64,000 nt of DNA from Escherichia phage WPEC2 (PV691511.1); one strand, 5' to 3'. Shown: positions 54,313 through 55,200, numbered from the stretch's first letter. Numbers and translations: made by a program. Notes: a model not told the origin generated them from the sequence alone.

Positions 54313-55200
54313 TCAGAACGGAATATCATCGTCGAAGTCCATTGGAGGTTCTTCTTGATTACTTGGAGTTGGTTCTGGTTGTGGTTCAGGTTTCTTAACT
54401 TCTTTCTTCTCTTCTTTCTTAGGCTGTTCTGCGGAACCACGAATGGCAGCAGCAACTTTATCAGACAGAGCTAGAACTTTACGAGCAGAGTCAATCAGAT
54501 CTTCTACAGATACAGTCTTAATGGTATGGTCTTTACAAGCATTGAGAATAGCGTGACCAACAGATGCCCCAAGATCATAATCATTAATATCAACACCACG
54601 AGATTCAGCAATTTCCGATTTCAGCGTGACAGTTGCAGATTGAACAACCCCAGCGATATCGAAAGCATCGCCTTTAACACCATTACGAATCAGTTCCAGT
54701 GCACCATTTACTGCGTGACCAGTTTCCAGACCTACAGTATCACGTTTTTTATAAGACTGCTTAGGAGCAGTATCGTTGGAACCTTTATTGCCAGAAGATT
54801 TGTTAGACTTCTGAACACCATCGGTAGACAATACTGTAATACGAGATTTTTTAGTATTGTAGTAAGTTTTACCGCCTTTATTATCAACGCGATCAATATC
54901 AATACTTACTTCTACACCTTTTTCAATAGTGATCCAGTTATCACCTTCTTTGACTTGCAGGTTTTCATAACCTTCTTTCAGTTCAATATCACCAAGAGAA
55001 ATCCAAACACCTTTCTCATCTGGTTTAGCACCTTTCTCTTTCAGAACAAGAGAAGCTCGGTGAGTTGAAACAATCGTTTTTCCTTCCCAATGAAAAGTTT
55101 TAGGTTCAGCGAATTTATCCAGTTTAACGTAGTCTACGATACCAGTTGCATAAGTTACGGTTTTGCCTTTACGATCAGTTTCAGTATTAATTACGGACAT
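54313..55200 (-). CDS. single-stranded DNA-binding protein-like, with E. coli SSB-type acidic C-terminal tip
   Basis: Last residues PPMDFDDDIPF match the E. coli SSB C-terminal tip as recalled; preceded by a low-complexity linker; N-terminal domain not obviously SSB-like. Confidence 0.5.
   Translation of the reverse strand: MSVINTETDRKGKTVTYATGIVDYVKLDKFAEPKTFHWEGKTIVSTHRASLVLKEKGAKPDEKGVWISLGDIELKEGYENLQVKEGDNWITIEKGVEVSIDIDRVDNKGGKTYYNTKKSRITVLSTDGVQKSNKSSGNKGSNDTAPKQSYKKRDTVGLETGHAVNGALELIRNGVKGDAFDIAGVVQSATVTLKSEIAESRGVDINDYDLGASVGHAILNACKDHTIKTVSVEDLIDSARKVLALSDKVAAAIRGSAEQPKKEEKKEVKKPEPQPEPTPSNQEEPPMDFDDDIPF

Follow-up and report, generated by a model that had tools for sequence, protein, structure and literature searches.

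How a phage protein comes to end in the C-terminal tip of its host's SSB (single-stranded DNA-binding protein), and which partners such a tip would serve, is the question raised by a gene at 54313–55200 of the window, the whole 64,000-nucleotide stretch of Escherichia phage WPEC2 DNA (PV691511.1) that was analysed here. An earlier note on this DNA had described an SSB-like protein of 295 residues at these positions. The interval and the length proved right in our ORF list, and the strand, which the note had left out, is minus. Translation of the plus strand across the interval meets many stops; on the minus strand the gene opens with an ATG at 55200, with a Shine–Dalgarno-like GAGGAG read at 55207–55212 (minus strand), 6 nt 5' of the ATG, and closes with a TGA at 54313–54315 (...GAT ATT CCG TTC TGA). 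The protein matches PHROG 4477 (E 2e-97), which is its family, is annotated as function unknown and comes from phages of the Stephanstirmvirinae and Vequintavirinae. A bidirectional terminator-like hairpin at 54258–54281, located by terminator scan and by reading the sequence, sits between this gene and a convergent tail gene at 51584–54256 on the plus strand.

The gene is well represented among related phages. A tblastn search against phage genomes found 99–100% identity to proteins in ~55 records of Phapecoctavirus, the phAPEC8-like E. coli myoviruses of ~150 kb within the subfamily Stephanstirmvirinae, and weaker matches in phages of Klebsiella, Salmonella, Cronobacter and Pectobacterium and in other enterobacterial phages. 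The window accordingly belongs to a Phapecoctavirus, and because these near-identical proteins occur in Phapecoctavirus records mostly from E. coli hosts, we take E. coli to be the host. Most GenBank records label the gene 'hypothetical', and several label it 'SSB' or 'single-stranded DNA-binding protein'.

The protein ends ...PSNQEEPPMDFDDDIPF, and over a longer stretch its C-terminus (...SAEQPKKEEKKEVKKPEPQPEPTPSNQEEPPMDFDDDIPF) consists of a Pro/Glu/Lys-rich linker followed by the tip. The C-terminus of E. coli SSB in PDB entries 1EQQ and 4MZ9 reads ...APSNEPPMDFDDDIPF, and alignment to these chains showed that the last 12 residues of the window protein, EPPMDFDDDIPF (residues 284–295; 54316–54351, minus strand), are identical to those of the host SSB. 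The residues PSN ahead of the 12-residue tip are also common to both proteins, but for a two-residue insertion. The earlier note had matched the end PPMDFDDDIPF to the E. coli SSB tip, had described the linker ahead of it and had proposed a comparison with the SSB of the host once this was known; with E. coli as host, all 12 residues agree, and the linker is as described in the translated C-terminus. A sequence search of PDB chains aligned the tail alone, matching E. coli SSB (1EQQ/4MZ9) and a close SSB homolog, 7F2N. As in canonical SSBs, the protein combines a disordered linker, an acidic DDDIPF tip and a free C-terminal Phe, with the TGA directly after it. The SSB-Ct pockets of canonical partners bind the free carboxylate of this terminal Phe.

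Such an end is rare in the phage. Among ORFs of at least 50 aa in a six-frame translation of the window, only two proteins end in DDIP[FW], the SSB-like protein and a nucleotidyltransferase, and when the ORFs of a complete relative genome were scanned down to a length of 40 aa, the same two proteins and no others were found. Because DDIP[FW] ends are confined to these two proteins in both ORF sets, we conclude that the tip is not a chance occurrence. The nucleotidyltransferase (197 aa; 55655–56248, minus strand; PHROG 10174 and 1614) has a GGAVRD...DLDF motif, is encoded two genes upstream of the SSB-like gene and ends ...SEEDDIPW, with its tip at 55658–55678. The operon thus has another protein with an SSB-Ct-like label, and this one is not an SSB. 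Of its 12 homolog clusters (58–97% identity), 10 retain the DDIPW end, and the linker ahead of it varies.

Outside the tail, we found no sequence kinship between the window protein and canonical SSBs, a point absent from the earlier note. A Pfam search of the window protein matched no family, PF00436 (SSB) included. The NCBIfam model PRK09010 matched residues 254–295 only, scoring 22.8 bits where the cutoff is 260, and PHROGs annotated as SSB matched only residues ~250–295. Across the family the picture was the same, with a PF00436 match in none of 68 diverse members and no Pfam family consistently matched either. A profile search of PDB sequences matched the tail and nothing else, and hhalign comparison of the OB sub-alignment with 11 canonical SSB OB domains returned a probability of 0.3%. 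Membership of PF00436 was rejected on these grounds, since Pfam, NCBIfam, PDB profile and hhalign searches all reach the tail only. The description of the protein as SSB-like therefore holds for a predicted OB fold and for the tip, and does not extend to sequence kinship with canonical SSB beyond the tail.

The OB fold comes from an AlphaFold2 model of the window protein built with a 53-sequence alignment (A1; mean pLDDT 84). Residues 1–125 (54826–55200, minus strand) form a predicted all-beta domain with pLDDT >90, which we presume to be the ssDNA-binding part, and this domain matches the OB domains of SSB, RPA and Stn1. Matches to RecO span only ~90 residues, which are those of the OB domain. 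In a Foldseek search of the PDB nothing was significant (best E 7.5e-3), and the top matches also contain OB folds. The structure prediction proposed in the earlier note thus came out on the side of an OB fold, and the likeness is supported at the level of fold in the model. Aromatic positions conserved within the domain are H47, W66, W89 and Y114, the kind of residues that a surface for stacking of ssDNA would need.

A second globular domain, on which the earlier note was silent, makes up about one third of the protein. Beyond a disordered Ser/Asn/Lys/Gly-rich linker (residues 126–151; 54748–54825, minus strand; pLDDT <50 over 133–148), residues 152–255 (54436–54747, minus strand) form a conserved four-helix domain, delimited by the model and by alignment A1, with predicted helices at 156–172, 179–201, 208–223 and 232–253 and pLDDT of 92–97 over 161–250. 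The domain carries a duplicated D-x3-G-x3-G-H-A-x-N-x-A motif (RDxxGxExGHAxNGA and DYDLGASVGHAxLNA), and D154, G157, G161, H162, A163, T190, K194, G211, V214, G215 and A217 are near-invariant, making it the best-conserved globular part of the protein. It has no Pfam family, and structure searches gave no specific match, returning generic helical repeats only. We regard it as a putative self-association or partner-binding domain; as its conservation exceeds that of the OB domain, the core activity of the protein might lie there. The remainder of the protein, residues 256–295, is predicted to be disordered and begins with the Pro/Glu/Lys-rich linker (residues 256–283; 54352–54435, minus strand; pLDDT 52–57).

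The position of the gene also speaks to its function. It is the last gene of a minus-strand replication operon that runs in the order primase-helicase, two unknown ORFs, family-A polymerase, three small ORFs, nucleotidyltransferase, a 130-aa unknown ORF and the SSB-like gene. The primase-helicase (61537–63315, minus strand) is a fusion of Toprim and DnaB_C domains (Pfam Toprim_2, 3.6e-09; DnaB_C, 2.3e-15), the architecture of T7 gp4, and the polymerase (56877–60209, minus strand) matches Pfam DNA_pol_A and PHROG 17. The T7-like replisome that the earlier note had invoked is therefore borne out by two proteins of the same operon. The polymerase gene itself holds a 244-aa intein-like insertion at residues 584–827 (57729–58460), defined against an 865-aa ortholog; the insertion begins with Cys, ends ...TGN before a Cys, contains a LAGLIDADG-like motif (LEGFLIADG) and has a weak Intein_splicing match. 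The idea that the phage also encodes a canonical SSB at another locus was rejected: in Mt1B1_P17, a complete annotated relative, the ortholog of the window protein is the sole annotated SSB, and tblastn with E. coli SSB matched nothing except the tail of the SSB-like protein.

Genetic evidence on this family comes from a homolog, Bas52_0087. Escape mutants of phage Bas52 that overcome the DRT10 reverse-transcriptase defence map to Bas52_0087, which is required for DRT10 triggering. In this bioRxiv preprint of April 2026 the protein was called SSB-like on the strength of AlphaFold2 and Phold, which gave it two OB folds and a disordered C-terminus with FDDDIPF as its C-tip (10.64898/2026.04.29.721553). 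The escapers are all missense, with D252V and Y351C at a "putative oligomerization interface", and Bas52_0087 expressed alone is not toxic and leaves host viability unaffected (10.64898/2026.04.29.721553). SbcB/ExoI, one of the classical partners of SSB-Ct, acts against DRT10, its overexpression weakens the defence, and the C-tip of Bas52_0087 was proposed possibly to compete with or displace it; the Stephanstirmvirinae, the subfamily of the window phage, are also restricted by DRT10 (10.64898/2026.04.29.721553). We located bas52_0087 (QXV84166.1) in the record of Escherichia phage RudolfGeigy/Bas52, a Vequintavirus. BLASTP aligned it with the window protein across the OB domain (34% identity over 123 aa, E 8e-13) and across the helical domain and tail (33% over 168 aa, E 9e-16). 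In this alignment D252 corresponds to the near-invariant D154 at the start of helix 1 and Y351 to A250 in helix 4, placing both DRT10-escape sites in the four-helix domain and outside the OB fold and the tip. We found no literature report of ssDNA binding or tip-dependent interaction for any Bas52_0087-like family member and nothing specific on the SSB of phAPEC8 or Phapecoctavirus; the DARNA preprint covers other phage SSBs and not the PHROG 4477 family.

As a whole, the evidence suggests that the window protein is probably the phage's own non-canonical ssDNA-binding protein, belonging to the Bas52_0087-like (PHROG 4477) family and acting through a host-type tip. The predicted N-terminal OB fold would coat ssDNA exposed by the T7-like replisome, and the four-helix domain could mediate self-association or cooperative assembly, as the DRT10-escape sites of the homolog suggest. 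The flexible Pro/Glu/Lys linker displays a C-terminal peptide that is identical in sequence to the tip of the host SSB. This tip would dock in E. coli SSB-Ct pockets, so that ExoI/SbcB, PriA, RecQ and chi might be recruited or titrated, and it may dock phage proteins too, as the tail of T7 gp2.5 does. The interpretation put forward in the earlier note is a sensible one with partial support. The protein would in this way serve as the replicative and recombination SSB of the phage, and host ssDNA metabolism could be perturbed and the perturbation sensed by DRT10-like defences, for which the genetic evidence comes from the homolog only. One point counts against recruitment of host proteins, namely that the benefit to the phage of bringing ExoI to its own ssDNA is not obvious.

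How the tip has been kept bears on whether it addresses host partners. A word-indexed search found 137 homolog clusters, and among 1.84 billion representatives a full HMMER profile search recovered 317 clusters (clustered at 50% identity) at E ≤1e-3, 110 of these at ≤1e-30. We inspected the C-termini of 258 family representatives for a strict tip pattern, in which acidic residues precede I/L/V or similar and Pro-Phe/Trp/Tyr forms the extreme C-terminus. This pattern was present in 198 of the 258, DDDIPF being the commonest ending (82), and a further 16 had a Pro-Phe or Pro-Trp end whose surroundings fit the pattern less strictly; about 83% of the representatives have a Pro-Phe or Pro-Trp end behind acidic residues. 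The tip is followed by one extra residue in 6 representatives and by a 14–17-residue extension in ~20 (~9%), and 8 end in an acidic stretch and then Phe, as in T7 gp2.5. Within alignment A1 (53 sequences), P294 and F295 never vary, and conservation is at least 96% at D290 and D292, while the adjoining linker, which varies strongly between homologs, could not be aligned. By these counts the tip is the most strongly selected and most conserved element of the protein family, and several lineages have PSNEPPMDFDDDIPF in common with E. coli SSB. Since a host-like tip has been kept across divergent lineages while the linker drifts, it appears to be constrained by partners that do not coevolve with it, and we infer that these are host SSB-interacting proteins.

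Alternatively, the protein could be a phage SSB whose tip works mainly within the replisome, docking on the polymerase and/or the primase-helicase, with the nucleotidyltransferase competing for the same pocket and the identity to the host tip reflecting ancestry. The T7-like replisome is in keeping with this reading, as is the conserved DDIPW tip on a second operon protein, which recalls the tails of T7 gp4 and gp2.5 and their one common polymerase site. The DNA of the tip bears on the question of ancestry. Its last 39 nt are 92–95% identical to ssb of P1-like plasmids (~95 kb) and 80–90% identical to most E. coli genomes; the best-covered chromosomal matches are ~80% identical, and the one inspected is the ssb of a prophage, whose tip differs slightly. 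The tip codons are identical to P1-like ssb at 34 of 36 nt and to a Vibrio-phage ssb at 26 of 36, and the tip proline is encoded by CCG, which accounts for just 6% of the phage's proline codons. A simulation under phage codon usage gave a probability of ~0.005 per comparison for a match of 34 of 36 or better, and the match is not significant once the multiple ssb variants are corrected for. The rare CCG codon and the 34/36 match would fit capture of a host-type ssb module, and the sequence suggests that such a capture may have occurred. However, the DNA similarity to P1-like ssb stops exactly at the stop codon, and as several ssb variants were compared we do not claim a recent transfer of tail DNA from E. 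coli ssb; this also weakens the case for ancestry as the source of the identity. Moreover, a tip and a pocket that are both phage-encoded could drift together, as in T7, T4 and HK620, whereas DDDIPF is near-constant across the 258 clusters, and the primase-helicase has no matching acidic tail. We therefore consider a mainly intra-replisome tip unlikely, though it deserves serious attention.

Some relatives of the window protein do not end at the tip. After IPF, ~9% of family members continue with [AS]P[ILV]GLQY and ~8 more residues, the capped peptide reading ...DDDIPFAPIGLQYGRNFLHCF, and the extension is also found in Phapecoctavirus alleles that are otherwise 99% identical. The Phapecoctavirus gene has three 3'-end alleles. 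One is short, as in the window, one has just the extension, and in the third an HNH endonuclease gene of ~500 bp comes in addition to the extension. The window gene and that of L002, the only pair compared in full, are ~98% identical in DNA. Between the window and the HNH-bearing allele, 4 of the last 30 nt differ, against 13 of 855 elsewhere (Fisher P = 0.002), and this concentration of differences in the last 30 nt points to a recombination boundary at the tip. Seunavirus and Mydovirus homologs carry the extension behind DDDIPF without the HNH gene, and it recurs behind DDDIPF in Vibrio-phage SSBs of the canonical E. coli type and in a small number of mobile elements from marine gamma-proteobacteria and from Providencia; a scan of 185,579 species genomes found it in 8 stretches of DNA. 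The idea that the extension is a by-product of HNH insertion was rejected, since it is present without HNH in Phapecoctavirus alleles, Seunavirus, Mydovirus and Vibrio-phage SSBs. Between E. coli-phage and Vibrio-phage versions, 9 of 15 codons differ synonymously only and 4 by conservative replacements, and these mostly synonymous or conservative changes indicate that the extension peptide is under purifying selection. Folding of the extension back onto the protein receives no support from an AlphaFold2 model of the extended allele P0001, in which residues 299–310 have pLDDT <50. The cap should mask the tip, because canonical SSB-Ct pockets need the free carboxylate of the terminal Phe, and the natural occurrence of capped alleles implies that a free tip is not strictly essential. 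One could imagine the host-type tip as a portable and switchable address label, with the nucleotidyltransferase delivered to, or blocking, the same SSB-Ct pockets and the cap tuning engagement of the host interactome or evading DRT10-like defences that sense a tip-dependent disturbance of ExoI; we hold this to be rather doubtful.

A different use of the same peptide would be as an abundant decoy or competitor that saturates host SSB-Ct pockets and thereby stops repair and the restart of host replication or weakens nucleases and defences, with ssDNA coating secondary or absent. The 12-residue identity and the long disordered linker that bears it would suit a competitor, and so would the SbcB competition proposed for the homolog and the weakening of DRT10 by SbcB overexpression. 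However, a decoy would not call for a conserved predicted OB fold with conserved aromatics, nor for a place in the replication operon as the only SSB candidate in the genome; Bas52_0087 alone leaves the host viable, and the capped alleles occur naturally. We judge this explanation improbable. Least likely by our reckoning, and highly so, is a protein that does not bind ssDNA at all, in which an OB-like barrel and helices act as an adaptor (a helicase loader or recombination mediator) with an SSB-like tail, for although no other globular part is as well conserved as the helical domain and no sequence links the protein to any SSB family, the RecO matches cover only the ~90 residues of the OB domain, the genome would be left without any SSB, and a disordered linker with such a tip is a hallmark of SSBs.

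If the protein is indeed an ssDNA-binding protein with a host-type tip, then a clade of Stephanstirmvirinae and Vequintavirinae coliphages replicates with a structurally distinct SSB, one that would address the host SSB interactome through a peptide that agrees with the host's own in all 12 residues. Many large virulent coliphages of these subfamilies serve in phage-therapy cocktails. The tip would then offer a handle on the host genome-maintenance enzymes that such phages need or disarm, and on why DRT10-like defences can recognise them.

Compared with E. coli SSB (PF00436; 1EQQ, 4MZ9), the window protein has an OB domain without detectable sequence homology, an additional conserved four-helix domain and a linker that is Pro/Glu/Lys-rich rather than Gly/Gln/Pro-rich. 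T7 gp2.5 is a phage-specific, non-canonical OB-fold SSB, as the window protein would be, and the two have in common an acidic tail ending in Phe and a replisome with a family-A polymerase and a gp4-like protein. The acidic tail of T7 gp2.5 contacts both the phage polymerase and the primase-helicase. HK620 SSB is a distant canonical SSB whose tip, NDYPPF, has diverged, unlike that of the window protein, and its last six residues are needed to recruit the phage-encoded Sak4 onto SSB-coated ssDNA (PMC5928155). Together with E. coli SSB itself, HK620 SSB with Sak4 and T7 gp2.5 provide precedents for partners recruited by a tail. The SSBs of P1-like plasmids, prophages and Vibrio phage V039C are mobile-element SSBs that, like the window protein, keep the host tip DDDIPF; these proteins have a genuine E. 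coli-type OB domain (MASRGVNKV...), which the window protein does not, and some of them bear the same post-tip APIGLQY... extension as its relatives.

The closest described counterpart is Bas52_0087, which has the same PHROG-4477-type architecture, an FDDDIPF-type tip and a position at the end of the replication module, with an overall identity to the window protein of ~33%. The family and its host-type tip were already flagged, both in the 2026 preprint and in the annotation of some GenBank records, and the window protein is confirmatory in this regard. Bas52_0087 has 408 residues, and its OB fold is separated from its helical domain by a further beta-domain that the window protein does not have. 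This ~100-aa domain (..KVYGEI..GGRLAA..SGFKAYG..) occurs only in homologs of 370–425 aa, inserted in alignment A1 at the linker of residues 126–151, and corresponds to the second OB fold of the preprint. Because it has only one beta-domain and the ~100-aa insertion is missing, the window protein represents the short form of the family, and this minimal arrangement of one predicted OB fold, helical domain and tip makes it convenient for biochemistry. The C-ends also differ in their likeness to the host, with Bas52_0087 ending ...QYSFDDDIPF and the tip of the window protein matching E. coli SSB over 12 residues.

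We found that the SSB-like gene of this phage (54313..55200, minus strand) belongs to a set of alleles that differ in what follows the C-terminal tip. In some alleles the final IPF is followed by a 15-residue extension, APIGLQYGRNFLHCF, and these extended alleles carry an HNH endonuclease gene downstream in some cases and lack it in others. We compared the corresponding site in the window, 54282..54315, with that of its relatives, namely the sibling Phapecoctavirus allele L002 (3886..4399), gp116 and gp117 of the complete genome Mt1B1_P17, and two further stretches, L009 and L010. 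The window allele is the short form, in which the last TTC codon is followed at once by TGA, and a spacer of 29 nucleotides stands where the extended relatives have a cassette of ~520 bp. Sequence differences between alleles are clustered in the last 30 nucleotides of the gene (Fisher P = 0.002). The extension is disordered in the AF2 model, and its 15 residues would bury the terminal Phe of the tip.

The same post-tip extension, DDDIPF-AP[IV]GLQY[GP]xxLLxx[MI], is also found on canonical E. coli-type SSBs (L006 577..1125, L011 1536..2084, and stretches L013-L020), and a genome scan gave 8 DNA stretches with an extended canonical SSB. The carriers are Vibrio phages, as well as mobile elements or prophages from genera that include Pseudoalteromonas, Oceanisphaera, Glaciecola, Vibrio and Providencia. 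Because the codon changes between the E. coli-phage and Vibrio-phage versions are mostly synonymous, we infer that the extension peptide is under purifying selection.

A second SSB-Ct-like tip is encoded in the same operon as the SSB-like gene. The 197-residue nucleotidyltransferase (55655..56248, minus strand), which matches PHROG 10174 and 1614 and has the GGAVRD...DLDF head motif, ends in SEEDDIPW (55658..55678, minus strand), resembling SSB-Ct, the docking tip of E. coli SSB, with Trp replacing Phe. The DDIPW end is kept in 10 of 12 clusters of nucleotidyltransferase homologs while the linker before it is variable, and a scan of a whole relative genome found such tips confined to this enzyme and the SSB-like protein. 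Between the two genes lies a 130-residue ORF (55217..55609, minus strand), with a promoter-like TTGACA-18-TAGGAT immediately upstream of it (55618..55647). Its product matched PHROG 16560, a group of unknown function (E 1.5e-76), and gave no match in Pfam or NCBIfam; we consider it a candidate partner.

The DNA polymerase ORF (56877..60209) contains a 244-residue insertion (57729..58460, minus strand), defined against 865-residue orthologs, to which the flanking polymerase sequence is 99% identical. The insertion begins with Cys and ends in ITITGN followed by Cys, includes a LAGLIDADG-like motif, LEGFLIADG, and has a weak Pfam Intein_splicing match (E 0.007). The inserted segment is likely an intein that carries a homing endonuclease.

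The family profile search also returned a distant match, P0259 (519 residues), to which the profile aligns in 8 separate stretches. The best of these falls on the helical domain (profile positions 155-257), so this module may exist in tandemly repeated form as well, lacking both OB fold and tip. Separately, ~15-20 of the phage database matches were "Campylobacter phage" records with C. jejuni as host (e.g. MG065650.1 and MG065635.1), whose genes are 99% identical to E. coli Phapecoctavirus or Vequintavirus genes; these host labels look doubtful.

The DNA encoding the tip of the SSB-like protein (54316..54351, minus strand) uses codons atypical for the phage, namely CCG (6% of its Pro codons), two GAC and two TTC. 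It shares 34 of 36 nucleotides with the tip-coding end of ssb on P1-like plasmids, and is thus nearer to that gene than to its sibling L002 (32 of 36), even though the L002 allele is otherwise ~98% identical.
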